A stretch of 63,289 bases of DNA, counting the filler. It is 3 parts of 3 records of this genome, joined end to end, with 100 filler letters (N's around TTAATTAATTAA, not from the genome) between each part and the next. Parts side by side here need not be neighbours in the genome. Positions count along the whole stretch, not along the records: positions 44,355 to 63,289 come from SRR20825006_208; 2 more parts are not named here. One strand, given 5' to 3'. A program made the position numbers and the translations under genes. Below are positions 13,509 through 63,289 of this stretch, piece after piece; the first letter of the stretch is position 1; each line of letters opens with the position of its first letter. The notes under the pieces are model-generated. The model had not been told where the DNA came from. It was given only the letters and a program-made list of their open reading frames with translations, and ran no database searches.

Positions 13509-13766
13509 ATGCAACCTGTCACGCTCTACACCACTCCGATTTGCCCTTATTGCATCGCGGCCAAGCGCCTGCTTGACAGCAAAGGGGTTACCTACACCGA
13601 CATCAACGTGATGGCCGAACCCAATCGTCGCGCCGAGATGATGCAAAAGGCCCATGGTCGCCACACCGTGCCGCAGATTTTCATTGGCGACACCCATGTC
13701 GGCGGTTGTGATGAGCTTTACGCCCTTGAACGTGCTGGTAAACTCGACCCGCTTTTGGCGGATTGA
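13509..13766 (+). CDS. grxC: glutaredoxin 3
   Basis: CPYC, TVPQIF and GGCD motifs. Confidence 0.95.
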   Translation: MQPVTLYTTPICPYCIAAKRLLDSKGVTYTDINVMAEPNRRAEMMQKAHGRHTVPQIFIGDTHVGGCDELYALERAGKLDPLLAD

Positions 13767-13769
13767 GCC

Positions 13770-14606
13770 ATGACCCGCGTTGGCCTTATTACGCTTAATT
13801 CCTCTGACGATCCACTTGCCAATCTTGCGATCACGCAACGCTATGTGACCGAAGCGGCAGAGGCGGGGGCGCAGATTGTTTTGACGCCAGAAGTCACCAA
13901 TTGCGTTTCAAGTTCGCGTACACATCAACGAGAGGTTTTGCGCGCTGAGTCTGAAGACCCAACATTGGCAGGGTTGCAGGAAACGGCAAAATCTTGTGGG
14001 ATTTGGCTCTTGATCGGCTCACTGGCCTTAAAGACCGATGATCCAGATGGGCGATTTGCCAATCGCTCGTTCCTGATCACCCCTGAGGGCGAAATCGCCG
14101 CGCGCTATGATAAAATCCACATGTTTGACGTCGATGTCAGCGAGACGGAGACCTATCGCGAATCCGCCGGGTATCGTCCTGGCAATCGGGCAGTTTTGGC
14201 GAAAACGGCGCTGGGCCAGATCGGTATGGCGATTTGTTATGATCTGCGTTTTCCGCATTTGTTTCGTTCTTTGGCACAGGCAGGAGCCGACATCCTCACC
14301 GTGCCTGCGGCCTTCTCTGCCGTGACCGGGGCCGCGCATTGGGAGAGCTTGCTCAGAGCGCGGGCGATTGAGACCGGGTGTTTTGTTTTTGCTCCGGCGC
14401 AAACGGGGCAACACGTCGAAACCACAGGGTCAACGCGCCGCACCTATGGTCATTCTCTTGCCGTTTCGCCCTGGGGAGAGGTGCTTTATGATGGCGGTGT
14501 TGAACCGGGATGGGATGTGATTGACATTGATATGGGCGACGTTGCTCATGCCAGATCGCGCATTCCTTCCCTGTCCCATGATCGTGACTTTGAGGTTCCG
14601 CAATGA
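13770..14606 (+). CDS. carbon-nitrogen hydrolase (Nit1-like)
   Basis: TPE, YDKIHMFD, ICYDLRFP and ARAIE: the Glu-Lys-Cys triad family. Confidence 0.92.
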   Translation: MTRVGLITLNSSDDPLANLAITQRYVTEAAEAGAQIVLTPEVTNCVSSSRTHQREVLRAESEDPTLAGLQETAKSCGIWLLIGSLALKTDDPDGRFANRSFLITPEGEIAARYDKIHMFDVDVSETETYRESAGYRPGNRAVLAKTALGQIGMAICYDLRFPHLFRSLAQAGADILTVPAAFSAVTGAAHWESLLRARAIETGCFVFAPAQTGQHVETTGSTRRTYGHSLAVSPWGEVLYDGGVEPGWDVIDIDMGDVAHARSRIPSLSHDRDFEVPQ

Positions 14607-48725: not shown

Positions 48726-51137
48726 TTAAAATTTAAGTGTTGCTCCTAATAAAAAGTTAGCTTTTGCTTGCGGGAAAAATCCTGCTCCTTCAAAAGTTGT
48801 AATGCTACCGTCTTCATTTCCTCCATCGAAGGTGAAGTAATACCCATTATTTACATACTCTTCACTAAAGATGTTGTTAACCAATCCTGTTATCACTATT
48901 TCTTTAAACAGACTGTTTGTAGAGAAAGTATATTGCACATTTAAATCTGTTGTGAAATAGCTATCTAGTTTAGATAAAGGCGCTTCTACATTACTTAAAT
49001 ATTGTTCTCCTACATATTTATTAAGCATCTGTAACTCTAAATTTTTAACCGGTATGTATTTAATTGCGTTTCCAGCTATAACATTAGGCGAATACGAAAT
49101 TTCTGTATTGCCTAGGTTTACTAAGCTGCCGTCTAGACTAGTTACAAAATCTCTGTTTTTATTGGTACTTATAGCCATATTAGGATTCCAAATAAGGTTT
49201 TTCAAAATTTGAACAGATGCATCTACCTCTAACCCTAATCTATAGCTTGAGCCACTATTAGCTCTAATTGGTGATCCTACATCATCTATTGCTCCAGTAA
49301 GCACAAGTTGATTGTTATAATTCATATAATACACATTAGTATTTATTTGAAATTTAGGATTGTTTAATCTCCAACCTAACTCAAAATCATCTAACTGTTC
49401 TGGCTCTGGATTACCGTTTTCAAAATCTGTGCGGTTTGGTTCTCTGTTAGCTCGTGCATAAGATAAATACAAACTGTTTTCTGTATTTAACTTATAGTTT
49501 GTTCCTAATTTAGGATTAAAGAACGTATAGCTTTCATCTACATCTAAGTCGTCACTACCACCAATAGCTTCGTAATCTACTAGGCGTATTTGTGCGTCTC
49601 CATAAACACTCCATTTATCGCCAAATTTTAAAGTAGCTTTACTAAAAGCAGAAAATTCATTTTTCTCACTATCGCCATCATAATATCTGTCATAAGGTAA
49701 GAACCCGATAGGGATTTCTGTAGATAATATTTCGCCATAGTGATCTCCTTTATAGGTGCTATAAAAAGCTCCTGTTGTTACATCTAAACTTTCATTTTTG
49801 TAGTTTACACTTGCATTTACAGCTAAGAAATTATTATCTAACCAACGACGTCTTACATAATCTGTAGTTGTAAACTCTTCGCCATCTATGGTTACAGGAT
49901 CTACGCCAAAAAAGTCTAATTGTGCATCTCCTGAAAATAAGATGTTTGAATAATAAAATTCATCTACATACTGCTCAAAATATCCTGCACCTCTAGTGTA
50001 GTTAAGTGCTACGTTAGTGCTCCAGTTATTATTGTAACGCTCATTCCAAAGTAATTGATAATGATCTTGACGGTAATTATCTACTTCATTTTCATAAAAT
50101 CCTTCAAAGTTTCCTTCGCGGTCAAATTGTTGTCCTACGGTATTAAATGTTCTGTCGCTTTGTAGCGTTGCCTCATCGACACCATAATAGGCCTGATAAG
50201 TTTCTTCAAAACCACCAAAGGTTATAGCTTTTATTAGTGTGTTATCATCTTTATAAGCTGCTTGTAAAAAATAACCCTTAAGATCTGATGTTGCACGATC
50301 TATATAACCATCTGAATCTATTTTGGACAAACGCCCTGAAACTGAAAAATGATCACTTAATGTTCCAGTTCCAAACCTAAGTGTTGCCTTACGAGTGTTA
50401 AAACTACCTACAGATCCAGACAGCTCACCATAAGCTTCATCTTTTACAGCATCTGTCAAGATATTTAAACTTGCACCAAAAGCACCAGAGCCATTTACAG
50501 AAGTACCAACACCGCGTTGTAATTGGATGTTCTCTGTAGAAGAGGCAAAATCTCCTAAATTAACCCAAAATGTGCCTTGGCTTTCTGCGTCGTTATAAGG
50601 AATCCCGTTAATTGTTACATTTACACGAGTAGCATCACTACCACGCACACGTATTCCAGTATAACCAACACCAGCACCAGCATCACTAGTTGTTACAACT
50701 GCAGGTTGGTAGTTTAAGAGTATAGGAATGTCTTGTCCTAAGTTACGATCTTCAATCTCTTCTTTAGAAATGTTTGAATACGTAATTGGTGAGTCTGCAG
50801 TAACTCTTACAGAACGCACTAAGACTTCATCTAAAATCTCAGAGTCTTCTAATAAGACAAAATTTGCAGTTACATCTTCTTCAAGATTAATAGTCTGCTC
50901 TTGTGTAATCATACCAACATAACTTACAACTATTGTATACTGCTCTTTTTCTAAAGAGAAGTTATAGTTACCAAGTGCATTGGTTTCTGTGCCTGTAGTT
51001 GTTCCTTTAATAAAAATAGAAACACCTTCAATAGGCTCATTTTTAGAGTTTGTGACATTACCAGAGAGTTGAAATTCTTGCGCAAATGTGCTGGCAGACA
51101 CAAATAGTGCGCAAAGTAGAATAGATACAGTTTTCAT
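48726..51137 (-). CDS. TonB-dependent receptor, probable thiamine (vitamin B1) uptake
   Basis: Signal peptide, carboxypeptidase-regulatory-like N-terminal domain, plug (RVRG..R.NV.INGIP.ND), C-terminal Phe; preceded by a TPP riboswitch. Confidence 0.88.
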   Translation of the reverse strand: MKTVSILLCALFVSASTFAQEFQLSGNVTNSKNEPIEGVSIFIKGTTTGTETNALGNYNFSLEKEQYTIVVSYVGMITQEQTINLEEDVTANFVLLEDSEILDEVLVRSVRVTADSPITYSNISKEEIEDRNLGQDIPILLNYQPAVVTTSDAGAGVGYTGIRVRGSDATRVNVTINGIPYNDAESQGTFWVNLGDFASSTENIQLQRGVGTSVNGSGAFGASLNILTDAVKDEAYGELSGSVGSFNTRKATLRFGTGTLSDHFSVSGRLSKIDSDGYIDRATSDLKGYFLQAAYKDDNTLIKAITFGGFEETYQAYYGVDEATLQSDRTFNTVGQQFDREGNFEGFYENEVDNYRQDHYQLLWNERYNNNWSTNVALNYTRGAGYFEQYVDEFYYSNILFSGDAQLDFFGVDPVTIDGEEFTTTDYVRRRWLDNNFLAVNASVNYKNESLDVTTGAFYSTYKGDHYGEILSTEIPIGFLPYDRYYDGDSEKNEFSAFSKATLKFGDKWSVYGDAQIRLVDYEAIGGSDDLDVDESYTFFNPKLGTNYKLNTENSLYLSYARANREPNRTDFENGNPEPEQLDDFELGWRLNNPKFQINTNVYYMNYNNQLVLTGAIDDVGSPIRANSGSSYRLGLEVDASVQILKNLIWNPNMAISTNKNRDFVTSLDGSLVNLGNTEISYSPNVIAGNAIKYIPVKNLELQMLNKYVGEQYLSNVEAPLSKLDSYFTTDLNVQYTFSTNSLFKEIVITGLVNNIFSEEYVNNGYYFTFDGGNEDGSITTFEGAGFFPQAKANFLLGATLKF

Positions 51138-51316
51138 CCGTAACAAAAATTACGAATAAAAGGGGCGATTATTCTTAGGTTTAAAAAAATTAAATTATAA
51201 AGCTACTATAGCTTCTTGTGTTATTAAAACAGTAAAATTTTAGTCTATTTCGCAAAAAAATAACCCATTGCAATATGCTTACAACAACTTAATTTGACTA
51301 AAAAAATATGTTTTAA

Positions 51317-51396
51317 AAATTTCCCTAAACAGCATTACCTGTTCTAGGTTCATTGGGTGTAATCTCAGCCGTATTAAAATACAGCACCCCTTTGAG
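51317..51396 (-). ncRNA. TPP (THI-box) riboswitch, variant
   Basis: Minus strand AAAGGGGTGC-TGTATTTTAATACG-GCTGAGA-TTAC-ACCC-AATGAA-CCTAGAACAG-GTAATG-CTGTTTAGGGAAA. P2, GCUGAGA, ACCU and the L5 UAAU are present. Confidence 0.88.
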
Positions 51397-51404
51397 ATTT
51401 TGCG

Positions 51405-51412: not shown

Positions 51413-51493
51413 GACATTGGTTTTAATCTGCAAAATCAATTTTATTAATTCCTTAGCATATCGCTATAAGAACTCTCTGTATTTTTGAAGCCT

Positions 51494-53935
51494 ATGGATA
51501 AGACCAAAAATAGGTTTACATTTAAAATCATACTTAGTTATGTGACCTTAGGGGTTTTAGCCCTTGTTGTAGGTTTTTTCTTGTATTCTGAATTTAAGTT
51601 TCTGCTTAAAACCAATACGACTACAACAGAAGATGAAAAATTTATAGAAACCGGAACACTTATAAATCAAGTTTACGAAACCGATGGCTTTTCCAGGCTT
51701 GCCTTGCTTACTGGTGAAGAGTCTGATTTTGAGTTATATCAACAAAAAGCAGACTCACTTTTTAATAAAATTGAGGAAATAAAAACCTTAACAGACATCC
51801 AATTTCAAAAGCAACAATTGGATTATGTTAAAGAGCTACTGCTTCAAAAAACTAAGAATATTGAGCAGCTACGCATTCTTAAACTTACCAATAGTAAAGA
51901 CTCTTCTTTTGATGATATAGCAGAAGAGTTTAATAAGCTAGAATCCTCTATGGGGAAACTCACAGTCGAAACGTTTATTAATAATCCCAATGATCTTACA
52001 GAGCGAGAACGTAGAATTTGGAGTAATTATGTAGAATACCTAAATCAATCTGAAGAGCGAGACACTGCCACTGTAAAAACAAAGGTTGTAGACTCTATGA
52101 TTACTGCAACAAGATTTATTCTGGCTGAAGCTAAAAGAGAAAATTCAAAATCTAGAGAAGCGCTACAGCAAAAAGAGAATGAGTTAATTAGGAACGATCT
52201 AAATATTTCTGCACAATTGCGCCAAATAATAACTGCGTTTGATGCAGAGATAGCACGAAAAAACCAAATACAAGCGACCAAGAAAAGTGCTTCTGTAGAT
52301 AGGACAAGTACAATTTTAAAATACTCTGGTGTTTTAGGAATATTTATCATACTCCTATTTACCTACATTATTTTAAATGATTTCTTTAAAGCAGAACGCT
52401 TTAAAATATCACTCAAAAAATCTAAAGATTATTCTGAAGAACTTTTAAAAAGTAGGGAACAACTTATCTCAACTGTAAGTCACGATTTAAAAACACCCTT
52501 AAATACAATTGTAGGCTACTCTGATCTTATTGAAAATACAGACCTTACAGAAAAGCAACTATACTATGTAAACCAAATAACCAACAGCTCATTATACGTG
52601 ACCAAGTTGGTTGATGACCTTTTAGATTTCTCTAAACTAGAAGCTGGCAAACTACATATTGAAACTATACCATTTTCTCTAGAAAGCATAATACAGCAAA
52701 CTGTTGAAACCTCTAAAGATGTGCATCAACAAAAAAATGTAGCCATCCATCTTTATGTGGACCAAGCTATAAGCAATCAAGTTTTTGAAAGCGACCCACT
52801 ACGTATTCGCCAAATATTAAGTAACCTAATTGGTAATGCATTTAAATTTACCGAAGAAGGTTCTGTTACAGTTTATGCTAAAATATTAGAGCAAAAAGCA
52901 CAAGAATTTGAGATAGAAATAAAGGTAGTAGATACCGGAATAGGTATTTCTAAAGAAAAACAAGAACTTATATTTAAAGAATTTCAGCAAGCAGAAGCAG
53001 ATACCATAAAACGCTTTGGCGGTAATGGCTTAGGCCTTGCCATTAGCAGGAAACTTACCAACTTATTACATGGAACCTTAACTGTAGATAGTACTCCAAA
53101 CCAAGGCAGTACGTTTACATTAGTATTACCTCTCAAACTTTCTGAGAGTAAACTAAAGTCTGAAATTACCACGTTAACTAAAGCGGTAAAGTCTTTAACT
53201 GTTGTGGTTATAGATGATGATACAAGTATGACTAAGTTATTAGAGGAGCTTTTTGGCCAAATGAATATTACTTGCCACAGCTTTAATGCTTTTGAAGATT
53301 TTGTTGCTTCGCATAATTTTGAATACGATTTTGTACTTACAGATGTTGAAATGCCAAAAACAAATGGCTTTCAGGTTTTAGAACAACTAAAGCGACACTT
53401 TAAAGCAAATTATAACGGACAGCCAATTGTGGCTATGACAGGTAGTAGAGAATACACCGTAAGATCTTTTAAAGAACAAGGTTTTTCTGGATTGTTGCAC
53501 AAACCTTTTCCTAAGGAGAAGTTATATTCTGCCTTAAATCAATTATTTCCAGAACATATGGGAATACCTATTAAAATTGAAAGCGAAAAGGAAACAACAC
53601 AACAAAGCACATTATTTAATTTAAGCTTGCTCAACTCATTTCTTAGTACAGAAGACGCTTTAGAAGAAGTTTTGTTTTCGTTTTATAATGAAGTGAATAT
53701 AGATTTACAACGTATGGCACTAGCCGTAAAAACAGAAGATTATACCGCCGTAAATGACATAGCACACAAAATGCTTACACTAACCAGACAATTAGAAGCT
53801 AAAGAGGTTGTAAAAATTTTAGATGTGTTAGAGTATGTAACTCCAGAAAACTTAAGGCAAGAAACATTAACGTCTCTATTTAACTCATTACAAGAAAAAG
53901 TAGAAAACTTAGTGACAGCTTTAAAGAATAGATAA
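51494..53935 (+). CDS. hybrid sensor histidine kinase (periplasmic domain, HisKA, HATPase, REC, Hpt)
   Basis: Two TM segments, SHDLKTPL, NAFKFT, DTGIG, GLGL, DVEMP, and AHKM Hpt-like motif. Confidence 0.93.
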   Translation: MDKTKNRFTFKIILSYVTLGVLALVVGFFLYSEFKFLLKTNTTTTEDEKFIETGTLINQVYETDGFSRLALLTGEESDFELYQQKADSLFNKIEEIKTLTDIQFQKQQLDYVKELLLQKTKNIEQLRILKLTNSKDSSFDDIAEEFNKLESSMGKLTVETFINNPNDLTERERRIWSNYVEYLNQSEERDTATVKTKVVDSMITATRFILAEAKRENSKSREALQQKENELIRNDLNISAQLRQIITAFDAEIARKNQIQATKKSASVDRTSTILKYSGVLGIFIILLFTYIILNDFFKAERFKISLKKSKDYSEELLKSREQLISTVSHDLKTPLNTIVGYSDLIENTDLTEKQLYYVNQITNSSLYVTKLVDDLLDFSKLEAGKLHIETIPFSLESIIQQTVETSKDVHQQKNVAIHLYVDQAISNQVFESDPLRIRQILSNLIGNAFKFTEEGSVTVYAKILEQKAQEFEIEIKVVDTGIGISKEKQELIFKEFQQAEADTIKRFGGNGLGLAISRKLTNLLHGTLTVDSTPNQGSTFTLVLPLKLSESKLKSEITTLTKAVKSLTVVVIDDDTSMTKLLEELFGQMNITCHSFNAFEDFVASHNFEYDFVLTDVEMPKTNGFQVLEQLKRHFKANYNGQPIVAMTGSREYTVRSFKEQGFSGLLHKPFPKEKLYSALNQLFPEHMGIPIKIESEKETTQQSTLFNLSLLNSFLSTEDALEEVLFSFYNEVNIDLQRMALAVKTEDYTAVNDIAHKMLTLTRQLEAKEVVKILDVLEYVTPENLRQETLTSLFNSLQEKVENLVTALKNR

Positions 53936-55309
53936 TTACAACTCTAAATTATAATGCTCCATCTTATTATAAAGAGTCTTTCTGGTAACATTTAACAACC
54001 TAGCCGCTTTACTCTTATTGTAACCAGCTTCTTTAAGTGCATTAATTATAAGTTGCTTTTCATTAGTGTCTTTAGAAAAATCTTGAGTTGTTACTGCCAC
54101 TTGTCCCTTAAAGTTAACTACTTCTCTAGGAATTACATCTATTGGCACCAACTGCCCAGTTGTAAGTAAAACAGCTCTTTTAATAATGTTTTTTAATTCT
54201 CTCAGGTTACCAGGCCAGTTGTAGGATTTAATAGCTTCTTCAACTTCCTTAGACAGGCCTACAACATTTTTATCTAAAGCTTTGTTAGCCATTTCTAAAA
54301 AGAACTCTGTAAATAAGAATAAATCGTCACTACGCTCTTTTAAGCTAGGTATATGTACAGAAAACTCATTTAGCCTATGGTATAAATCTTCTCTAAACTT
54401 ACCATCTGCAACTGCTTTTAAAAGATCTTCATTAGTGGCAGAAATAATTCTAACATCTACCTCTATCTCTTTGTTACTGCCTACAGGTTTTATTTTTCTT
54501 TCTTGTAAGGCACGCAAAAGCTGAACTTGGTTTTCGTAAGACAGATTACCAACCTCATCTAAAAATAATGTGCCTTTATGAGCAGCTTCAAAATGACCTT
54601 TTTTGTCATTTATTGCGCCTGTAAAGCTTCCTTTTACGTGTCCAAAAAACTCACTTGCAGCAATTTCTTTAGGGATAGCACCACAATCTACAGCTACAAA
54701 ATTTTCGTTACTGCGTTTGCTATAGTTATGAATAGCATTTGCGGCAACCTCTTTACCAGTACCACTTTCACCTTGTATAAGCACGCACATATCTGTTGGT
54801 CCTACAAGCTTTAGGTACTCATTAAATTTCTTAGAAGATTCACTAATACCTTTCACAAATGAAGAAGAGTCTGGAAGCTCACTCGTTTTGTGCTTTACGG
54901 TTTTAGCTTTAGGACTTGTTTCAACATTAAGTGTAGCATTTGTTTTAGATTTATTTTCTGCCTGCTCAATAACCATTAGCAACTCTTCTGGTCTAAACGG
55001 TTTTGAAATATAATCTAACGCTCCTTTTTTAATAGCTTCAACAGCTGTTGAAACTTCTGCATAACTTGTCATTAAAATAATGTTAGTATCTGCAGATACG
55101 CTTTGGCAATACTCCAAAAGATTAAGGCCGCTATCATCTGGAAGCTTTAAATCTGTTATAAGCAACTCATACTTTTGTTCTTCCATCTGCTTTCTAGCAT
55201 GATTTCCGTTTAAGGCAGTACTTACCTGAAAACCCTTTCGTTCTAGAAACTTAGAAAGCATTTTACCAAAAGCAACGTCATCTTCTACGACTAATATTCG
55301 TTGTATCAT
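53936..55309 (-). CDS. sigma54-dependent NtrC-family response regulator
   Basis: REC domain, GESGTGKE, GSFTGA, LFLDE, WPGNLREL and Fis-type HTH. Start moved to ATG 55309. Confidence 0.94.
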   Translation of the reverse strand: MIQRILVVEDDVAFGKMLSKFLERKGFQVSTALNGNHARKQMEEQKYELLITDLKLPDDSGLNLLEYCQSVSADTNIILMTSYAEVSTAVEAIKKGALDYISKPFRPEELLMVIEQAENKSKTNATLNVETSPKAKTVKHKTSELPDSSSFVKGISESSKKFNEYLKLVGPTDMCVLIQGESGTGKEVAANAIHNYSKRSNENFVAVDCGAIPKEIAASEFFGHVKGSFTGAINDKKGHFEAAHKGTLFLDEVGNLSYENQVQLLRALQERKIKPVGSNKEIEVDVRIISATNEDLLKAVADGKFREDLYHRLNEFSVHIPSLKERSDDLFLFTEFFLEMANKALDKNVVGLSKEVEEAIKSYNWPGNLRELKNIIKRAVLLTTGQLVPIDVIPREVVNFKGQVAVTTQDFSKDTNEKQLIINALKEAGYNKSKAARLLNVTRKTLYNKMEHYNLEL

Positions 55310-55372
55310 TTCATATATGTATGAATTGTAAAAATAGAAAGTCTCCACACCTTTTGTCTTTAAAGTTATCAT

Positions 55373-55406
55373 AAAAAAAAGACACCCATTTTACTGAGTG
55401 CCTCTT
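55373..55406 (-). terminator. intrinsic terminator after the two small secreted proteins
   Basis: Minus strand GAGGCACTCA-GTAAAA-TGGGTGTCTT stem followed by a T-run. Confidence 0.75.
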
Positions 55407-55433
55407 CAACGTATTAAAAACTAAATCCTGCTT

Positions 55434-55757
55434 CTATTGCTTTTTAATCCACTCGCCTTTGCTATTTGCATAAACGGTTTTTTCAGCTTTATCTGCAGTA
55501 GTTATGACAAGCTTGTACTCGTCCTTGTCATTTGCAAAGGCTTTAGTAAGAGTTGCCCCTTTAAAATCTGATGCAAATGCTTCTTTAACGGCTTGTGGTA
55601 ATTTCTCTGCAGTAATTGCTTTGTAATTATCCTGAACAGCAACTGTAGTCTTCACTTCAGTCTTTGTCATTGCCATTGTTTCAGTTTTCTTTTCCTGTGC
55701 ATTCATTGCTGTTAGTGTACCTAGAGCAATTGCAGCTGTTAATATGATCTTTTTCAT
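55434..55757 (-). CDS. small secreted protein, PepSY/DUF2874-like repeat (paralog 2)
   Basis: Signal peptide; LPQAV...F.GATL.KA...EYKL...VYA...GEWIK. Confidence 0.8.
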   Translation of the reverse strand: MKKIILTAAIALGTLTAMNAQEKKTETMAMTKTEVKTTVAVQDNYKAITAEKLPQAVKEAFASDFKGATLTKAFANDKDEYKLVITTADKAEKTVYANSKGEWIKKQ

Positions 55758-55798
55758 AACAATTTTTTTTTGTGGTTAAACTATAATCTAGTTGGTGG

Positions 55799-56125
55799 TT
55801 ATTTTTTCTTAATCCACTCACCTTCTGCAGTTGCATATACAGTTGCTTCTGTATCTTCTGCAGTAGTAAGGGTTAATTTATATTCGTTTTTACTGTTTAT
55901 GTACGCCTTATTTAAGGTTGCTCCTTCAAAATCTTTTGATAGTGCAGTTTGAACCTCTTGTGGTAAATCTGTAGCTTTAATTTCTACATATTTTTCCTGT
56001 AATAAAGACTCTGCTTTTACCTCAACAGAAGCTTCTGTATTTGCTGCTACTGGTGTTGTAGCTTGTGCATTTGTAAATCCTATTGCTCCTAATGCAATTA
56101 CCGCTGTATATATGATCTTTTTCAT
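55799..56125 (-). CDS. small secreted protein, PepSY/DUF2874-like repeat (paralog 1)
   Basis: Signal peptide; LPQEV...DFEGATLNKA...EYKL...VYA...GEWIKK. Confidence 0.8.
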   Translation of the reverse strand: MKKIIYTAVIALGAIGFTNAQATTPVAANTEASVEVKAESLLQEKYVEIKATDLPQEVQTALSKDFEGATLNKAYINSKNEYKLTLTTAEDTEATVYATAEGEWIKKK

Positions 56126-56174
56126 GATATCTAATTTTAGATTTATTTAATGTTTCAAAGTTGTTAGGTATAAG

Positions 56175-56190
56175 GCTACAATTATACCAA
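56175..56190 (-). promoter_or_regulatory. sigma54 (-24/-12) promoter
   Basis: Minus strand TTGGTATAATTGTAGC gives GG-N10-GC, 50 bp upstream of ATG 56125. Confidence 0.65.
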
Positions 56191-56368
56191 GGCTTTAAAA
56201 AATTAATTATCAAGTAAGTTTTGATAGAATATTATAGATAAAAAAGTACATGCCAGTACTCATAAAACAATAAACACCAATGCATTACAGGTTTTGTTTT
56301 ATATGTAGTTTATAAAAACACAACTAATTAGGTACAAAATATATGAAAGTTGAAAATTGGATATCAGG

Positions 56369-56404
56369 TGTGTAAACTTTAAAATTGTGTGTAATTGTTA
56401 CACA
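56369..56404. promoter_or_regulatory. putative enhancer (UAS) for the NtrC-type activator
   Basis: Perfect palindrome TGTGTAA-TTG-TTACACA (56388-56404) plus an adjacent degenerate copy TGTGTAA-ACT-TTAAAAT (from 56369). Confidence 0.6.
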
Positions 56405-56419
56405 AAAGATCTGTATAGT

Positions 56420-56827
56420 TTAGTAATCTAATCTTGGCTTCTGTCTATTTGCTTTTTTCTTAGATGTTTTTTTCTTTGAATTAAGGCGTTTTAGTTTGGC
56501 CATTTTAGAAGGTCTTGTCTTTTTTCTAGGAGGTTTTTGCTTAGCGTTCTTTTTGATAAGCTCTAAAAAACGTTTAATAACTATATCCTTATTTTTGTGT
56601 TGACTTCTTGAGTCTTGAGCAACTATAATAAGGACGTTATCTTTAGTTAGCCTTGAGGAAAGCTTTTCTAACAATATAAAACGTTCTTTTTCTGAAATTG
56701 CTTGAGATGAGTTAATATTCCATCTAAGCTCAACTGCTGTTTCTGTTTTATTAGCGTGCTGGCCGCCAGGTCCAGAACTTGTGGTAGTGTTAAACTCTAC
56801 CTCTTCTATAAGTTGAGAGGCATTCAT
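56420..56827 (-). CDS. arfB: alternative ribosome rescue factor B
   Basis: SSGPGGQHANK GGQ motif, RSQ..N, and basic C-terminal tail. Confidence 0.93.
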   Translation of the reverse strand: MNASQLIEEVEFNTTTSSGPGGQHANKTETAVELRWNINSSQAISEKERFILLEKLSSRLTKDNVLIIVAQDSRSQHKNKDIVIKRFLELIKKNAKQKPPRKKTRPSKMAKLKRLNSKKKTSKKKANRQKPRLDY

Positions 56828-58413
56828 TAATTACTTATTTGGTGTGATTCTTTTAATAGATCTACCACAGTTTTTACAGGGTTAAATGTAGATAAGGGAA
56901 CTTCTACAAAAATTGTATTCCAATGTGCCATAGAGCCATTCCACAAACCAGGACGTTCTAATGCTTTTATATCTTGGCCATTTATGGTCTTTTGATTTAT
57001 AAAGCCTGCTTTATAATCTACATATTTAAGTAAGTCGAATTTTTCTCCTTTATAATTTCTTACGCTGCAAACAATATCTACAGGATTAAAATGTGTTGCA
57101 TCATTAAGGTAACGTAACTGTCTTGGGTCTTCTTTGTTAATTTGAACAGATTCTACAATCTGAAGAGATATTTTACCGCTTTCATGTTTAACCCAAAAAG
57201 GACCGCCACCTGGCTCTCCTTCGTTCTTAACCATACCACAAACGCGAATAGGTTTATCAAGTTGTTCCCGCAAATATTCAATTTGATATTTTAAAGAGAA
57301 CTTCTCAAAATCTTCGGACAGTATATTATTAAAGTTATCTTGTAAAAAGTAAACAATCTCGTGTATAAATTCTTCTGTAGGGTTCGCATTTTCATCTAAC
57401 ATCTCAAGAAATTTGAACGATGTTTGTCTTTGCTCTAAAAGCAAACCACCTAACATTTTCTTATAGTTGGCCACATCTTCTTCATATTGATATGTGACTA
57501 CATTGTCTATATTTTTAATAAATATGATATCTGCATCTTGTTCATTTAAATTTTCAATTAATGCACCATGACCGCCAGGTCTAAATACCAGATTGCCATC
57601 GTCATCTACAAATGGTGTATTATCTAAATTAACCGCTACAGTGTCTGTACTTTTCTTTTGGTAAGACTCTGTGGTAATAAATGTTGTGTCAGTTTTATTA
57701 GAGACTATGTCTTTTATACGATCATACTCAGATTTAAACTTATTGTAATGGTTATTTGATATGGTAAAATGAAGATGCGCCTTTTTATTTGGAGCAGCAT
57801 ACTTAGAGGCCTCAAATAAATGTTCTGCAAATGCAGATGCAGTATGTTCTTTATATTTATGAAAAGGCACCAATCCTTTAGGGAGATTTCCGTAGTTAAG
57901 TCCAGTTTCGCCTAATAAACACTCTACAATGCACACTTTTTTCTCATCATCAGAAAGTGAATTATAATTTGGGCAAGTTTTCTTTAACTGCTGAAGTATA
58001 GCCTCATAAAATGGAAATTTTTCTAAGCCGACAAAAAAGAGTTTAAGTGTATTGTCTTTTGTTTTATTTATAAAGGCATTAATACTTTCTTTTGAAGGAT
58101 TATAGGTGTCTAAAAACCGGTATAATGACTTAAACATTCTTGTAGCAGCGCCTGAAGCAGGTACAAATTTGATGACTTCAATATCATCTAGTTTTGAATT
58201 GTATAACTTAATATACGTCTGTTTCTTATCGTCTGAGATTTGAAGGATTCCGTTTTCTATTGTAGCACAGTCTGTCAAATTTATAAAAGGAATACCTTCC
58301 ATGAAGGTTTGCAACTGGTTCTCAACCTGTTTTAACGTTAAACCGTGATTTTCTATTTGCTTAAGTTGCTGTGCTGTAAAATCCAAAATATTTGCTTTTA
58401 TAGTGCCTCGCAA
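56827..58413 (-). CDS. DUF4301 family protein (nucleotidyltransferase-like motifs)
   Basis: KFVPASGAATRMFK, LPKGL, RPGGHGAL, IKNIDN, GEPGGGP, PGLWNG.M, FNPVKT. Start TTG at 58413 or 58386. Confidence 0.85.
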   Translation of the reverse strand: MRGTIKANILDFTAQQLKQIENHGLTLKQVENQLQTFMEGIPFINLTDCATIENGILQISDDKKQTYIKLYNSKLDDIEVIKFVPASGAATRMFKSLYRFLDTYNPSKESINAFINKTKDNTLKLFFVGLEKFPFYEAILQQLKKTCPNYNSLSDDEKKVCIVECLLGETGLNYGNLPKGLVPFHKYKEHTASAFAEHLFEASKYAAPNKKAHLHFTISNNHYNKFKSEYDRIKDIVSNKTDTTFITTESYQKKSTDTVAVNLDNTPFVDDDGNLVFRPGGHGALIENLNEQDADIIFIKNIDNVVTYQYEEDVANYKKMLGGLLLEQRQTSFKFLEMLDENANPTEEFIHEIVYFLQDNFNNILSEDFEKFSLKYQIEYLREQLDKPIRVCGMVKNEGEPGGGPFWVKHESGKISLQIVESVQINKEDPRQLRYLNDATHFNPVDIVCSVRNYKGEKFDLLKYVDYKAGFINQKTINGQDIKALERPGLWNGSMAHWNTIFVEVPLSTFNPVKTVVDLLKESHQISN

Positions 58414-58952
58414 TGCTCTATTGCAGTTTTTAAACGAGTTTCTACATTACCTTGTAATATTACATAATTACAATTATTTGCATCTAACTCATCCTTAAAC
58501 TTTAAAAACATAGCTTTACGTTCATCAGGTTTATCCCTAAGATCGTCTGCTTCCCAAGGTGTATCAATATAGGTTAATAGATATAGGTGGTAATAGTGGT
58601 CATTAACAGCACCTAAGATTTCTTTGGGGCAATAGTCGTTATAATATGCTTTGGAGTAAACTTTTATCTCACGAAGATTAGTATCACAAAACAAATATTT
58701 ATTTGCAACGTTGGAAAGTTCATTCTCCGTATTAATTTGCCCTTTTGCAATTGGGATTAAATCTTCCTTTTCACAAACTGTTTGTGTCCTATCCCATTTG
58801 TCTTGTAAATATATTCTCATAAACTCAGGCACAGAAACTGTTTTAAAATGTTCTGCTAAAAGGTTTACTAAAGTAGTTTTTCCTGAAGATTCAGGACCGT
58901 AGAGAACAATTTTTAGGCAGTCTGAAGTCTGTTGTTTAAAATCTTTTTCCAA
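58398..58952 (-). CDS. NadR/Ttd14-type P-loop kinase (ribosylnicotinamide-kinase-like domain only)
   Basis: GPESSGKTT, VPE..R.Y, FCDT, PW..D.LRD; no HxGH adenylyltransferase domain. Confidence 0.87.
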   Translation of the reverse strand: MEKDFKQQTSDCLKIVLYGPESSGKTTLVNLLAEHFKTVSVPEFMRIYLQDKWDRTQTVCEKEDLIPIAKGQINTENELSNVANKYLFCDTNLREIKVYSKAYYNDYCPKEILGAVNDHYYHLYLLTYIDTPWEADDLRDKPDERKAMFLKFKDELDANNCNYVILQGNVETRLKTAIEHCEAL

Positions 58953-59545
58953 GCTAAGTATCCAAATATTGAGATAATGACAAATATAACGTAAAGAAAA
59001 CTGCTCAATGTTAAACCCTTGTAAAAATAGAGCGGCACACTAATTACATTTCCCATTAATAAAAACAGCCAATTTTCTAGTTTCTTTTTGGCAAGCATCC
59101 ACATACCTACAAAGAACAATCCTGTTGTAAGTATATCTATATAGGATACCCAACCCTCAAACTTTTCAAACACATAATATATTATGTATATAAACAACAT
59201 TGTACTTAAAAATATTCCTAAACTATACGTATAGTCATTTTTAGTAGCCTTTGTTATAGGTGTTGTTTGCGTTGGTGTAACTTTTCTTGTCCAAATATAC
59301 CAGCCGTAAATACTCATTACAAAGTAGTAGCCATTAATTATGGTATCGCCTAGTAAATTGAATTTTAATAAGATATAAACAAAGATTAAAGTACTTACTA
59401 TTCCTGTAGGATACACCCAAACACTGTTGCGCATAGAGCAAATAGAAGATATTAAACCGAATACAATACCGGCAACTTCAAGACCTATAATATGTGTTTC
59501 GTAACCTCGATATTGCCCGAAGAAAAACTCAAAAATGGGGCTCAT
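58913..59545 (-). CDS. pnuC: PnuC-family vitamin transporter
   Basis: YP.GI, YY..MSIYGW..W, KK.ENW, PLYFYKG, GY..W; about 7 TM segments. Confidence 0.9.
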   Translation of the reverse strand: MSPIFEFFFGQYRGYETHIIGLEVAGIVFGLISSICSMRNSVWVYPTGIVSTLIFVYILLKFNLLGDTIINGYYFVMSIYGWYIWTRKVTPTQTTPITKATKNDYTYSLGIFLSTMLFIYIIYYVFEKFEGWVSYIDILTTGLFFVGMWMLAKKKLENWLFLLMGNVISVPLYFYKGLTLSSFLYVIFVIISIFGYLAWKKILNNRLQTA

Positions 59546-59789
59546 AATCGTGACGATCAGATTTTACGATTTTAATATAAAGTAAACCTCTCTCAACAAC
59601 CTCTAAAGCTATTTTCATTTCTTTTTGAAGAATACCCATCACCTCGTCATACTCTCCATATACTTGCGTACTTAAAGGGTTCTCCAATACTTTTAACCCT
59701 GAAGCTCTTAAGGATTTAATGAAGTTTATTATTGCTGGTTCAAAATCGTCTTGTAGTGGAGTTAGCGTTAGCTCGACTGAAATATTCAT
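59529..59789 (-). CDS. YkoF/MTH1187-type thiamine-binding protein
   Basis: ISVEL...PL, I..L..SGL....P.ST...G.YDEVM; ferredoxin-like, 86 aa. Confidence 0.8.
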   Translation of the reverse strand: MNISVELTLTPLQDDFEPAIINFIKSLRASGLKVLENPLSTQVYGEYDEVMGILQKEMKIALEVVERGLLYIKIVKSDRHDYEPHF

Positions 59790-59809
59790 TATGGTTGGTT
59801 TGGTTTCAG

Positions 59810-60694
59810 TTATTTGTTTAGATAGCCAAATCTACGTAATTGATTATCGTTACTACGCCAGTTTTTGTTCACTTTTACATATAACTCAATATGGACTTGT
59901 TTGCCAAAAAACTTTTCCAAATCTTTTCGTGCTTCAACTCCTACTCGTTTTAAAGCACTTCCTTTGTGACCTATTATAATTCCTTTTTGAGAATCTCGCT
60001 CAACCATAATAATGCTTCGCATTTTTATGATTTCTTCTTCTTCAAAAAACTCTTCGGTATCTACCTCTACACTATATGGAATCTCTTTTTTGTAATGCAT
60101 TAGAATTTTTTCTCTAATAATTTCATTTACAAAAAAGCGTTCTGGCTTATCTGTTAATTGATCTTTAGGATAAAATGCCGGAGACTCTGGCATTACTTCA
60201 ATAATTCTATTCAACACTTCAGAAACATTAAAACCTTCTAAAGCTGAAATTGGGTAAATTTCTGCAGTTGGCACTTTTTCTTTCCAATACTGCATTTGTT
60301 CTTCTAATTGATGCTGGTCTGAAGTATCAATTTTATTAAGTAATAATAATACAGGAATTTCTGCATTTGTAATTTTCTTGAAAAAGGCTTCATCTTTAAG
60401 ACTTTGCTCTCCAATCTCCACCATGTAGATAAGTACATCTGCATCTTCAAAAGCAGACTTTACAAAATCCATCATATTTTCCTGAAGTTGATATGCTGGT
60501 TTTATAATTCCTGGCGTATCACTTAACACAATTTGAAAATCTTCTCCATTTACAATTCCCAAGATACGATGTCTTGTGGTCTGAGCTTTGCTTGTTATGA
60601 TGCTTAGCTTTTCTCCTACAAAGGCATTCATTAATGTGCTTTTACCCACATTTGGGTTTCCAATTATATTTACAAATCCTGCTTTATGAGCCAT
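59810..60694 (-). CDS. era: GTPase Era
   Basis: GNPNVGKST, QTTR, DTPG, NKID, EIPYS and IIIG..G KH domain; -7 element TATCTTTG at 60710-60717. Confidence 0.97.
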   Translation of the reverse strand: MAHKAGFVNIIGNPNVGKSTLMNAFVGEKLSIITSKAQTTRHRILGIVNGEDFQIVLSDTPGIIKPAYQLQENMMDFVKSAFEDADVLIYMVEIGEQSLKDEAFFKKITNAEIPVLLLLNKIDTSDQHQLEEQMQYWKEKVPTAEIYPISALEGFNVSEVLNRIIEVMPESPAFYPKDQLTDKPERFFVNEIIREKILMHYKKEIPYSVEVDTEEFFEEEEIIKMRSIIMVERDSQKGIIIGHKGSALKRVGVEARKDLEKFFGKQVHIELYVKVNKNWRSNDNQLRRFGYLNK

Positions 60695-60738
60695 ATTAAA
60701 ACTTTTATACAAAGATACATTTTATTGCTCTAGTGTTC

Positions 60739-61605
60739 CTAAGGTTTTATGTCTTCTATAAGTGTTGTAATGAGCACTTCTATTTCGGGCTTTACGAGTT
60801 CTGGTCTTTGCCAGGCAATTTCATGTCCTGCATTAGAAATTGGAATAACAGTTATATTTTCGAAAACTTCTTTAGAGTAATTTACATTTCCAAATGGCAC
60901 TACTTTATCTTCTGTTCCGTGAATATGAACTACAGGAATTTTTAATGCTTCCCAACCATCTTCAATCTTTTCTAATTCTTTAGCGTGCGTCGTCTTTTCA
61001 TCTCCAGCAACACGGTAACCTGTTGGCACCAACCATCGCGTGAGCCAACATTGCGTTAGTCTAGATGCCCAAATTTTCTTTTCCTGATTAGGGTCTAATG
61101 CTGGAGACACCATAATTAGTGCTTTTACGCGTGTATTTAAAACAGCTGTCCTTGCTGCTAATGGACCACCATAAGATGTTCCTACCAAAATAACATTCTC
61201 TAAGTTATAGTCTTTAATTAACTCGTTCATAACTTTGGCATGAGTTTTAATAGATGTAAGCTCATCTCCAAAACCAGAATATCCATAACCTGGCCTATCT
61301 ACTGCATATAAGTTAGCTTTCTTTACTAATGACGTGTCTATTAAATAGTCTCGCCAAGCAGCCATTGAGCTAGGTGAACCGTGAAAAAAAATAACATTAA
61401 TGTTATTGTTAGATTCTTTTACTGCTTGTACCCTAATGTTTCTATCTATTACTTTTGAATTGAATGTAGTAATTTCTGTAGGTATGTTTATAGCTTTATG
61501 CCTAAGGTAAACCTCTTCTGTAGTTTCTCTGTATTGTAATGCTGTGCAAGAAGCGAATAAGACTCCTATAAGTATTAGTACTACTAACTAGGTTTTGGTT
61601 TTCAT
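60739..61605 (-). pseudogene. alpha/beta hydrolase lipoprotein with in-frame TAG at codon 6
   Basis: ATG AAA ACC AAA ACC TAG TTA GTA..., then an open frame with lipobox FASC, FHGSPSS, DRPGYG, GTSYGG, HGTEDKVV and AGH. Confidence 0.75.
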
Positions 61606-61645
61606 CTTCTTTTTAAATTCAGTTTTTATCTTGACTTTACAAATT

Positions 61646-61675
61646 AAAAAACTCTCAACTAGTGTTGAGAGTTTT
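61646..61675 (-). terminator. intrinsic terminator after the TonB receptor
   Basis: AAAACTCTCAAC-TAGT-GTTGAGAGTTTT inverted repeat. Confidence 0.88.
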
Positions 61676-61703
61676 AAGACTAATTTTTAACTATTTAAAT
61701 AAC

Positions 61704-63289
61704 TTAGAATGTGAAATCTAGACGTGTATAGTAGTAAGCACCGCCAAATCCCATTTGAACTGAATCCCAATAACCACCACCTTCGGTTTCACCATCATTT
61801 TGCTGATCTGGATATTCATTAAATAAGTTATTACTACCTATACTAAGCTTAACTTGGTCTGTAATTTCATACCCAAAGTTTAAGTCAACAGTGAATTTTG
61901 CATCATATACATCTTCTGTTTCTGCAAAATCGATTAAAGTTATTTCTGAATATCTTGTAACCCCCAATGCTGTATTAAACTTATTTTTTACATAAGACAT
62001 GTTTAAAGCAAACTTGCTATCTGGTGCAGAAGCTAATAAGAATGCTCGCTCTCTCGCACCGAAAAATGTATCTTCATCTAAGTTGCCATTATTTACATCC
62101 TTAATTTCAATACTGTTTATATTACCTAGTAAAGTGGCAGAAATTGAGCCGTCATCTAAAAGTTTCCTGTAAGAAAGTATAATATCTACACCTGTAGTTT
62201 CTGTATCTACGCCATTTACAAAAAACTGAGCTTCATTAACGTTGTCTATTTGTGGAGCGTCAAAAGTACCAGTTAGCACTATACGGTCTTTTACACTCAC
62301 AAAATAACCATCTATAGTAGCTGTAAAATCACCAGCTTTAGCTGTAAACCCTAAAGATGCATTTGTAGCAGTTTCTTCTTTTAACTCTCCAATACCAAAT
62401 GATCTGGTTACAGGACTATTATTTGCAGATAGTAGTGACTCTGTTGCGGTTCCTCCTTGAAAATCTGTAAAGCGCAAGTTGTAATATACTTGTGCCAAAG
62501 ATGGCGCCCTAAAGCCTGAGCTTAAAGATCCCCTTAAATTTATATTATCTGTAAGCTTATATCTTGATGCCAATTTTCCATTAAATGTGCTTCCGAAATC
62601 ACTGTAGTTTTCGAATCTAACTGCGCCGGCTAAAAGAAACTTTTCTGTAACGTCTAATTCTGTATCAACATACAGAGAAACGTTAGACCTACTTCTATCT
62701 ACTACATTTTCCGGGCTATAGCCTGGAAAACCTTGTGAGCCACCAGGTCTTGGGTTACCAGTTCCTGGATCTATAGGTTGTTGTTGTGTTTGAGGATCTG
62801 TTATGGGTTGCCCATTGGTGTCGTAGGTTGCATAAGAACCTGTTTCTCCTGCAAAAATTGTAAACGTTTCTGTTCTGTACTCTGTACCAATTGCTAAGTT
62901 AAAACCATTAGCTATGTCTGCGTAATATTTTGAAAAGTCTAAGTTTATTGTGTTTTGTGATAAAGAATGACCACCAGCATCAAACTCTGTAGGAGAGTTT
63001 TCTTCTAAAGATGCATTTAAGGTTCCTTTTATGTAATAATGAAAGACATTTTTTCCGTAAGTATTACTTAAATCTACTTTCCAATCGTTTCCTAACTCAG
63101 ATCGTACACCTGCTGCAAAAGAATTATCTGTAATTATAGATGTTATTCTTGGCGTAAAACCATTTGGATATATTTCTGTAACAACACGTTCTCCTCCATT
63201 TCTTGTAAATGCATAGGCATCTGTATCTCTATAATTTCGACCACCAAAGGCATAAACTTCGGTTTGGTCTGACACTGGAAAACTCAAGT
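61704..63289 (-). CDS. TonB-dependent receptor, C-terminal barrel (runs off the window end)
   Basis: RFENYSDFG, GFRAPSL, NNLFNEYP and C-terminal Phe. Confidence 0.9.
   Translation of the reverse strand, partial: LSFPVSDQTEVYAFGGRNYRDTDAYAFTRNGGERVVTEIYPNGFTPRITSIITDNSFAAGVRSELGNDWKVDLSNTYGKNVFHYYIKGTLNASLEENSPTEFDAGGHSLSQNTINLDFSKYYADIANGFNLAIGTEYRTETFTIFAGETGSYATYDTNGQPITDPQTQQQPIDPGTGNPRPGGSQGFPGYSPENVVDRSRSNVSLYVDTELDVTEKFLLAGAVRFENYSDFGSTFNGKLASRYKLTDNINLRGSLSSGFRAPSLAQVYYNLRFTDFQGGTATESLLSANNSPVTRSFGIGELKEETATNASLGFTAKAGDFTATIDGYFVSVKDRIVLTGTFDAPQIDNVNEAQFFVNGVDTETTGVDIILSYRKLLDDGSISATLLGNINSIEIKDVNNGNLDEDTFFGARERAFLLASAPDSKFALNMSYVKNKFNTALGVTRYSEITLIDFAETEDVYDAKFTVDLNFGYEITDQVKLSIGSNNLFNEYPDQQNDGETEGGGYWDSVQMGFGGAYYYTRLDFTF

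Follow-up and report, generated by a model that had tools for sequence, protein, structure and literature searches.

A conserved gene cluster of marine Flavobacteriaceae that may encode thiamine uptake by a PnuT-like carrier and a new type of thiamine kinase, packed with the predicted nucleotidyltransferase DUF4301

The stretch of DNA analysed here (63,289 nucleotides, composed of three parts from three records of one genome and referred to below as the window) contains, on its minus strand, four tightly packed genes that encode a Thiamine_BP (MTH1187/YkoF-type) protein of 86 aa (59529-59789), a Pnu-family carrier of 210 aa (58913-59545), a NadR-RNK-like, kinase-only P-loop kinase of 184 aa (58398-58952), and a DUF4301 protein of 528 aa (56827-58413; PF14134, E 1.7e-216). 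The packing reported in an earlier, sequence-only reading of the window, with successive overlaps of 17, 40, and 16 bp, was confirmed. A fifth packed gene, which that reading had passed over, overlaps the DUF4301 gene by 1 bp and encodes the ribosome-rescue hydrolase ArfB (56420-56827, minus strand; NF006718, 123.5 bits versus a cut-off of 100). No convincing terminator was seen within the cluster, and a scan with a sigma-70 promoter model, which is ill-suited to Bacteroidota, gave nothing better than shuffled sequences. Downstream on the same strand are a TPP (thiamine pyrophosphate) riboswitch (51303-51401; RF00059) and a TonB-dependent receptor led by it (48726-51146; plug and barrel domains). 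The riboswitch scored 42.5 bits against an Rfam gathering threshold of 54.3 (E 1.4e-5), with the model matched over its full length and the core motifs present; at the gathering level, no TPP riboswitch is found in the window.

The product of the first gene had been described as a thiamine-binding-type protein, and this holds: PF01910 was matched at 34.7 bits (cut-off 24.9, E 1.7e-8), while the matches to the YkoF family PF07615 (17.7 versus 21) and to TIGR00106 (17.9 versus 54.7) were below their cut-offs. The carrier matches PF04973 over profile positions 3-175 of 175 (E 2.6e-48). The kinase contains a Walker A motif, GPESSGKT, and further invariant motifs; AAA_28 (PF13521, E 3.9e-42) is its only domain and no NMN (nicotinamide mononucleotide) adenylyltransferase (NMNAT) domain is present, as had been noted, whereas the NadR-type protein of locus L097 has CTP_transf_like followed by AAA_28. 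The absence of a thiamine pyrophosphokinase (TPK) gene from the window was borne out by a tblastn search with the TPK of locus L114, the best match of which had an E of 1.8. The co-orientation of the riboswitch-receptor unit some 5.7 kb downstream was also upheld, the receptor start being 5681 bp from the end of DUF4301, with the riboswitch itself below threshold.

Conservation was followed in an even draw of 301 Bacteroidota genomes, 23 of which are Flavobacteriaceae, in 80 named loci from as many Flavobacteriaceae species, and in 75 marine metagenome loci. The named relatives of the cluster are Flavobacteriaceae. In the named set, PnuC adjoins the kinase gene in 80 of 80 loci and DUF4301 comes next in 68; since the same gene order recurs in this manner, the arrangement is not due to chance. 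The Thiamine_BP gene is present in 61 and ArfB in 47 of the 80 loci, and DUF4301 is absent from 9 of the 76 that have room for it (Tenacibaculum, Polaribacter, and others). We conclude that the four packed genes form a real cluster that is conserved in marine Flavobacteriaceae. In the phylum draw, DUF4301 was found in 50 of 301 genomes and in 20 of the 23 Flavobacteriaceae. PnuC lies directly upstream of it, with any kinase gene between, in all 20; the kinase is a separate gene in nine, forms a single open reading frame (ORF) with DUF4301 in eight (all of genus g18), and is missing in three (also g18). PnuC-kinase-ArfB is retained in three Flavobacteriaceae genomes without DUF4301, together with the Thiamine_BP gene in two of the three (L070 and L071); Thiamine_BP is absent from all 11 g18 genomes. 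Co-occurrence of DUF4301 with pnuC and the kinase, expected from the sequence-only reading, was thus observed inside the Flavobacteriaceae and not outside them, where neither PnuC nor the kinase was found within 8 kb of DUF4301 in any of 33 loci, and where 15 of the 30 DUF4301-containing genomes of the draw lack PnuC and 17 lack an AAA_28 gene. No conserved neighbour of DUF4301 was found outside the family; genes seen near it included TerB, QueF, Hpt, STAS, and sigma-54 regulators. At the DNA level, the region 55001-62000 of the window is about 65-71% identical at best to any compared locus, and the best protein match was 71%, one 99% copy having been set aside. By comparison, G001, the nearest genome by sampled 31-letter words, has 58% of them in common with the window.

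The carrier was placed in a careful tree of 41 Pnu proteins, selected from the 79 of a quick tree by dropping near-duplicates and long branches. The tree had a single split supported at 100/100, and the window PnuC fell on its 28-row side, together with riboswitch-led paralogues from L072, L077, L085, and L088, the PnuC of L114, and the proteins of family f42. The operon in L114 consists of a riboswitch (69.9 bits), a TonB receptor, TPK, and PnuC. All seven PnuC proteins encoded beside long NadR-type genes were on the opposite side of the split (the NadR type was checked for one such neighbour, that of L097), as were PnuC proteins with kinase-only partners from f19, L098, L106, and L128. In at least 19 other genomes, no more than 1 kb separates a PnuC gene from TPK (coordinates collated by hand); the two genes are co-oriented in f47 and G070 and convergent in f42. 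The motif WxxW(x)3D/N of TM6 (transmembrane segment 6) reads W-L-F-L-L-M-G-N in the window carrier, so that of the motif residues the leading W and the terminal N are conserved, with L in place of the second W. According to a study of PnuT (PMC5749112), changes at the W positions of this motif did not abolish binding, thiamine is transported by facilitated diffusion while TMP (thiamine monophosphate) and TPP are not bound, and Pnu carriers have the SWEET fold in common. Judged by its place in the tree, the window PnuC is probably a PnuT-like thiamine facilitator. A gene for an acyl-CoA-dehydrogenase-like protein (ca. 345-365 aa) was observed to follow and overlap the riboswitch-led Pnu paralogue in four genomes of three families (L072:3935-5704, L077:3950-5702, L085:3877-5893, and L088:3896-5744), an odd partner for a thiamine transporter.

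The thiamine genes of the same organisms were then compared with the distribution of the kinase. Among the 23 Flavobacteriaceae genomes, TPK was detected in the 11 of g18 and in none of the 12 outside it; elsewhere in the class, few families have it. ThiE is missing from 9 of the 23 genomes, and both ThiE and TPK are missing from eight Flavobacteriaceae genera. ThiL was present in each of ten Flavobacteriaceae genomes tested, including seven of these eight genera; in five genomes tested, ThiC was found once and enterobacterial ThiK not at all above its cut-off. With ThiL present and ThiE, TPK, and ThiK lacking, TMP could therefore come only from a further thiamine kinase, if there is one. From gene content, the sole candidate for this missing thiamine kinase, encoded beside the sole Pnu carrier, is the AAA_28 kinase. 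Within the class, 42 of 53 TPK-negative genomes have an AAA_28 gene adjacent to PnuC (of the NadR type in two cases), as against 8 of 17 TPK-positive genomes, with 0/6 outside g18; these counts were collated by hand, and as the genomes are related they overstate independence and amount to about five separate contrasts. In NAD metabolism, PncC and NadC were found in 5/5 and NAPRTase in 2/5 of the genomes tested, and the gene content shows no obvious gap in NAD synthesis.

A quick tree of 46 kinase domains, only moderately secure, separated the window kinase from NadR. The NadR-type kinase domains formed their own clade (95*), the sister of which consisted of kinase-only proteins of other Flavobacteriia, and the Flavobacteriaceae kinases were outside both; G150 and G282 carry genes of both the NadR and the kinase-only type. 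Far below the whole-protein cut-off, the window kinase matches TIGR01526 at positions 165-318 (E 1.7e-23), a part that, going by the domain order in L097, would be the kinase part, and its best solved relatives in PDB are NadR kinase domains (E 4e-12). Single ORFs that join the kinase to DUF4301 were present in 8 of 11 g18 genomes, in 3 of 25 g1 genomes, and in 5 of 68 named loci; these five represent four genera, in three of which the two genes also occur separately. Among long kinase homologues, about 70 of 76 were kinase-DUF4301 fusions. In other database proteins (P0180, P0177, P0187, and P0188), the fusion partner of the kinase is ArfB, an EPSP-synthase-like domain, or PnuC, some of these fusions perhaps being assembly frameshifts, and a fusion of the kinase to aldose 1-epimerase (AAA_28 plus PF01263; L108:3380-4825, genome G194, family f28) is flanked by PnuC and a TPP riboswitch. 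Every sampled Flavobacteriaceae genome also has an additional AAA_28 gene from a different subfamily (L129-L136 and L147; for example, L129:1118-4546), followed by genes for a RecQ-like helicase and a methionyl-tRNA-formyltransferase-like protein.

The structure of DUF4301 was predicted with AF2 (AlphaFold2) from 41 sequences, with a mean pLDDT of 93.6. Pyrophosphorylases for UDP-glucose and UDP-GlcNAc were the matches of a Foldseek search with the model (best E 1.6e-11, probability 1.00; TM 0.35-0.55). In VIA-align, the model matched yeast Ugp1p with a Z of 23.8 (338 residues aligned, rmsd, root-mean-square deviation, of 3.6) and UDP-GlcNAc enzymes with a Z of about 21, leaving approximately 190 of the 528 DUF4301 residues outside the core aligned to UDP-glucose pyrophosphorylase (UGPase). 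At the sequence level, the relationship is faint: the match to PF01704 is below cut-off (19.2 versus 22 bits) and covers the C-terminal part only, and a profile search of PDB gave a UGPase match at E 0.24. A GAATRM loop, RPxGHG, KNIDN, a GGGP segment, and PVK..DLL are invariant in the 41 sequences and are aligned by HMMER to the corresponding UGPase motifs; we take the nucleotide loop, GHG, NIDN, and PVK to have catalytic roles. We conclude from the modelled fold and the motifs that DUF4301 is very probably an active NTP (nucleoside triphosphate):phosphate-ester nucleotidyltransferase with a UDP-sugar pyrophosphorylase fold, and a nucleotidylation step is therefore chemically possible. In other Bacteroidota DUF4301 is found on its own, and for that reason it probably acts on an endogenous phosphate ester, the simplest candidate being a sugar-1-phosphate.

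Several further searches were made for the role of DUF4301. A dependence on TMP supplied by ThiE or by the kinase was considered and rejected, as it is true of 20/20 Flavobacteriaceae and fails outside (ThiE in 5/30 genomes, AAA_28 in 13/30). The frequency of ThiE was not clearly different between DUF4301-positive (17/50) and DUF4301-negative genomes (117/251, or 54/188 without family f35). A link to GT3 glycogen synthase was likewise dropped, there being no real association (8 of 34 DUF4301-positive versus 4 of 36 negative genomes), and complementarity with GalU was uninformative as a test, GalU occurring in 3 of 301 genomes; by TIGR01099 these three Bacteroidota were matched at E 1e-40, one of them above cut-off, and the source of UDP-glucose is not obvious from these searches. 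No fusion of DUF4301 was found among larger proteins of 925-2640 aa, a search of the ESM Atlas with DUF4301 returned no usable match, and prediction of a complex between the kinase and DUF4301, in which alignments were not used, gave a score of 0.00, which is evidence neither way. The DUF4301 family comprises more than 8000 clusters at 90% identity, and the only source names seen were "DUF4301 family protein" and "hypothetical protein". Variants of the gene were also observed: in G314 (L063, G314:C42) an additional copy of DUF4301 is interrupted by a stop codon, and in genomes of family f22 (L060/L062; G158 and G114) the protein is shortened, with approximately 45 residues of a helical insert missing. 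In L064:5632-10908 (G028, family f4), DUF4301 lies between a GT3 glycogen synthase gene (PF05693) and a riboswitch-TonB unit, with neither PnuC nor the kinase nearby; genes for a class-V aminotransferase and a Thiamine_BP protein are found further upstream.

Riboswitches homologous to that of the window were sought with an nhmmer profile built from the window copy, as they are missed at the Rfam gathering level. They were detected in 18 of 20 Flavobacteriaceae loci. Of the 80 named loci, 41 have a TPP element downstream of the cluster and in its orientation, none has one on the opposite strand, and in 33 of the 41 it follows ArfB or DUF4301 directly, within 300 nt. In the metagenome loci, it is downstream in 45/75 and upstream in 0/75. 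A riboswitch also follows PnuC-kinase in families f19, f26, and f28, and G258 has one TPP riboswitch genome-wide, which is beside the cluster. The window receptor and that of the L114 operon (riboswitch, TonB, TPK, PnuT) share 27% identity over 753 aa (E 4e-70), and the identity of the window receptor to its G001 counterpart is 56%. By this homology and its riboswitch, the TonB receptor is a probable outer-membrane thiamine receptor.

Taken with the above, a thiamine carrier and a new type of thiamine kinase that feeds ThiL, encoded beside a riboswitch-controlled receptor, is the reading we favour, at somewhat better than an even chance. Thiamine would be passed over the outer membrane by the riboswitch-controlled TonB receptor and over the inner membrane by the PnuT-like facilitator, the NadR-kinase-like P-loop kinase would turn it into TMP, and ThiL would convert TMP into TPP. 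The kinase would be a non-orthologous stand-in for the TPK that partners PnuT in Bacteroides, and the Thiamine_BP protein, at a guess, may hold the vitamin or a vitamer. DUF4301, apparently coupled to the kinase in translation and fused to it in many species, would convert an NTP and a phosphate ester into an NDP-ester (NDP, nucleoside diphosphate) and pyrophosphate. Thiamine is favoured over nicotinamide riboside (NR) because PnuC belongs to the PnuT clade, the kinase is outside the NadR clade, ThiL is an orphan, and a riboswitch-controlled receptor is nearby. The sequence-only reading had proposed a pathway of import, phosphorylation, and nucleotidylation: import and phosphorylation are supported, with thiamine preferred to NR as the substrate, and nucleotidylation is possible given the fold and motifs of DUF4301, while for the replacement NMN adenylyltransferase that it had offered as one role of DUF4301 there is no need, PncC being present in 5/5 genomes tested. 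That DUF4301 acts on the product of the ThiBP-PnuC-kinase module (ThiBP being the Thiamine_BP protein) is a tentative proposal, rather more likely to be wrong than right.

A number of observations weigh against the thiamine pathway as a whole or against the place of DUF4301 in it. The steps above are drawn from comparative genomics of related, non-independent genomes, and among characterised proteins the kinase is closest to nicotinamide riboside kinases. A TPP element upstream of PnuC-kinase was present neither in the window nor in any of the 75 metagenome loci, and none is listed for the 80 named loci, the search for riboswitch-led PnuC-kinase operons having covered Flavobacteriaceae-type loci. 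The kinase is not beside PnuC in 11 of 53 TPK-negative genomes, and g18 keeps it in 8 of 11 genomes despite having TPK and, mostly, ThiE. Four genomes (G001, G218, G266, and G310) contain a separate riboswitch-led PnuT paralogue, and the cluster copy could therefore carry another substrate. NadA is missing from three of five genomes, so that salvage of an NAD precursor could matter; genomes without NadA presumably form quinolinate from tryptophan. NR uptake may be a second or alternative role of the carrier. As to DUF4301, ArfB, which is unrelated and has no conceivable role in the pathway, is packed just as tightly, and the kinase is also fused to ArfB (P0180), to the EPSP-synthase-like domain (P0177), and to aldose epimerase (L108), so it tends to fuse with any downstream gene. 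Among the DUF4301 genomes outside the Flavobacteriaceae, ThiE occurs in just 5/30 and AAA_28 in 13/30, and PnuC is absent from 15/30.

One alternative, with a chance not far short of even, is that the vitamin module consists of ThiBP, PnuC, and the kinase only, and that DUF4301 is an ordinary NDP-sugar pyrophosphorylase (for example, for UDP-glucose) carried along in synteny like ArfB. Structurally, DUF4301 is most like UDP-glucose pyrophosphorylases (Z 21-24), the phylum has hardly any GalU, GT3 glycogen synthase is encoded directly upstream of DUF4301 in L064, and DUF4301 is alone in 33/33 loci outside the Flavobacteriaceae; the equal packing of ArfB and the fusion of the kinase to unrelated neighbours point the same way. 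However, by the counts given above GT3 glycogen synthase does not follow the occurrence of DUF4301, and it was found in 0/14 Flavobacteriaceae, DUF4301 is not the general enzyme of the phylum, since 251 of 301 genomes are without it, some 190 residues of the model extend beyond the 338 aligned to UGPases, and the kinase-DUF4301 fusions are frequent and stable. Those fusions, along with the thiamine evidence for PnuC and the kinase, would be accounted for if DUF4301 instead moved a nucleoside monophosphate to TMP or TPP and, joined to the new P-loop thiamine kinase, gave a nucleotide resembling adenosine-thiamine-di/triphosphate. PnuC and DUF4301 are still adjacent in the three g18 genomes that lack the kinase, all three of which have ThiE, and DUF4301 directly precedes a riboswitch-receptor unit in a second family (f4, L064). 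We nevertheless consider such a product unlikely: many DUF4301 genomes outside the Flavobacteriaceae have neither ThiE nor the kinase and hence no route to TMP (TPP is a possible acceptor), DUF4301 has been cleanly lost in two genera with the rest kept (L069-L071; Tenacibaculum and Polaribacter), and the motif alignment with UGPases reaches into their sugar-binding segment. We know of no need for a thiaminylated nucleotide.

Nicotinamide riboside, imported by PnuC, phosphorylated to NMN by the kinase, and converted to NAD by DUF4301 as a non-orthologous NMN adenylyltransferase, is the substrate to which the match of the kinase to the NadR kinase region of TIGR01526 and to NadR in PDB would point. 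DUF4301 is predicted to have the required nucleotidyltransferase chemistry, and its fusions to the kinase mirror the kinase and adenylyltransferase of NadR, in reversed domain order. NMN is made in every cell, which would suit a DUF4301 that stands alone elsewhere, and the loss of NadA from three of five genomes would give such salvage a use. Against this, the window PnuC is on the PnuT side of the 100/100 split, apart from 7/7 NadR-linked PnuCs, the kinase is outside the NadR kinase clade, no adenylyltransferase is missing where PncC and NadC are both present in 5/5 genomes, kinase-only modules are common without DUF4301 (in f18, DUF4301 0/16 and AAA_28 16/16), and the close structural relatives of DUF4301 all use hexose-1-phosphates; we regard the NAD route as quite improbable. 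A further alternative is salvage of a sugar or riboside of the Leloir/Isselbacher type: a glycoside would enter through a SWEET-like Pnu protein, receive a phosphate from the P-loop kinase, and be turned into an NDP-sugar by DUF4301. Two partners of the kinase, the UGPase-like enzyme in Flavobacteriaceae and aldose 1-epimerase in G194 (L108), are both sugar-pathway enzymes, and the SWEET fold is shared by Pnu carriers (PMC5749112). The lone ThiL, the anti-pattern with TPK, the PnuT clade, and the riboswitch neighbour are all left unexplained by it, and we hold sugar salvage to be very improbable indeed. Phosphorylation at an anomeric carbon is also not known to us from any P-loop kinase of this family.

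The thiamine pathway that we favour has parallels in several known systems. The thiamine uptake system of B. thetaiotaomicron consists of OMthi (BT2390), PnuT (BT2396), and Tnr3/TPK (BT2397) (PMC5613172). The Flavobacteriaceae genes resemble this system in having a riboswitch-controlled TonB receptor, a Pnu carrier of the same clade, and a candidate cytoplasmic kinase to trap the vitamin. They differ from it in that the partner is an AAA_28/NadR-type P-loop kinase and not TPK, and its product would therefore be TMP, requiring ThiL; in that PnuC and the kinase are upstream of the riboswitch and not under it; and in the addition of Thiamine_BP and DUF4301. Salvage of NR by PnuC and NadR (NadR of H. 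influenzae and L. lactis; PMC7221760) also has a Pnu carrier beside a homologous P-loop kinase and, as in the fused forms here, a kinase joined to a nucleotidyltransferase. Unlike NadR, the proteins described here have neither HTH (helix-turn-helix) nor NMNAT domains, their kinase is outside the NadR clade and their PnuC outside the NadR-linked PnuCs, and the transferase would have the UGPase fold and not the HxGH Rossmann type. In modelled fold and motifs, DUF4301 is like the eukaryote-type UDP-glucose/UDP-GlcNAc pyrophosphorylases (PF01704; yeast Ugp1p, 2I5K, and human UGP2, 4R7P), but it is below the Pfam cut-off, and the matches stop near residue 400 of the UGPase chains. In enterobacteria, ThiK phosphorylates thiamine to TMP, and ThiL then forms TPP; the chemistry proposed here is identical, but ThiK has an aminoglycoside-phosphotransferase fold, and the present candidate is a P-loop kinase. 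The choline importer, kinase, and cytidylyltransferase LicB-LicA-LicC offer an analogy only: there too a cationic hydroxyethyl compound is imported, phosphorylated, and activated by a nucleotidyl group, but the families are unrelated and no downstream transferase is present here. In a search that excluded subscription journals and supplements, we found no paper that ties an AAA_28/NadR-like kinase to thiamine and nothing on DUF4301 beyond a rumen metaproteome.

Other genes are present around the cluster. A gene for the GTPase Era (59810-60712, minus strand; NF000908, 373.8 bits), also unremarked in the sequence-only reading, ends 20 bp upstream of the Thiamine_BP gene, the first of the cluster. 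No Era was found at the DUF4301 loci of relatives by phmmer with the window protein (E 1e-3), and no match is listed in the 80 named Flavobacteriaceae loci at E 1e-5; era is outside the conserved cluster. Between ArfB and the riboswitch (51485-55372), Pfam matches identify a hybrid histidine kinase on the plus strand and a sigma-54 response regulator on the minus strand. Homologues of the sigma-54 regulator are also seen near DUF4301 in Flavobacteriaceae loci L016, L022, L028, L067, and L068. Flavo-1 RNA (RF01705) is found near the cluster in two g18 genomes (L029:12094-12172 and 13748-13826; L035:3758-3833).

The DUF4301 family now has a clear predicted fold and a short list of candidate acceptors. 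If DUF4301 does make a thiaminylated nucleotide, no gene has, to our knowledge, been assigned to this activity before, and in marine Flavobacteriaceae vitamin B1 would then have a form for storage or signalling. Many bacteria of marine and fresh waters are unable to make the vitamin themselves. Genome predictions at present accept "ThiL or ThiN" as sufficient for salvage (PMC6593275), although a cell with only ThiL also requires a thiamine kinase. In that study, a reconstruction of gut-microbiome metabolism, ThiK, ThiM, and ThiN are listed as salvage enzymes and "ThiL/ThiN" alone as the signature of a B1 auxotroph. If the thiamine carrier and kinase proposed here are real, Flavobacteriia genes now labelled as an NR transporter and its kinase are misannotated, and maps of B1 and B3 auxotrophy among ocean microbes would change.

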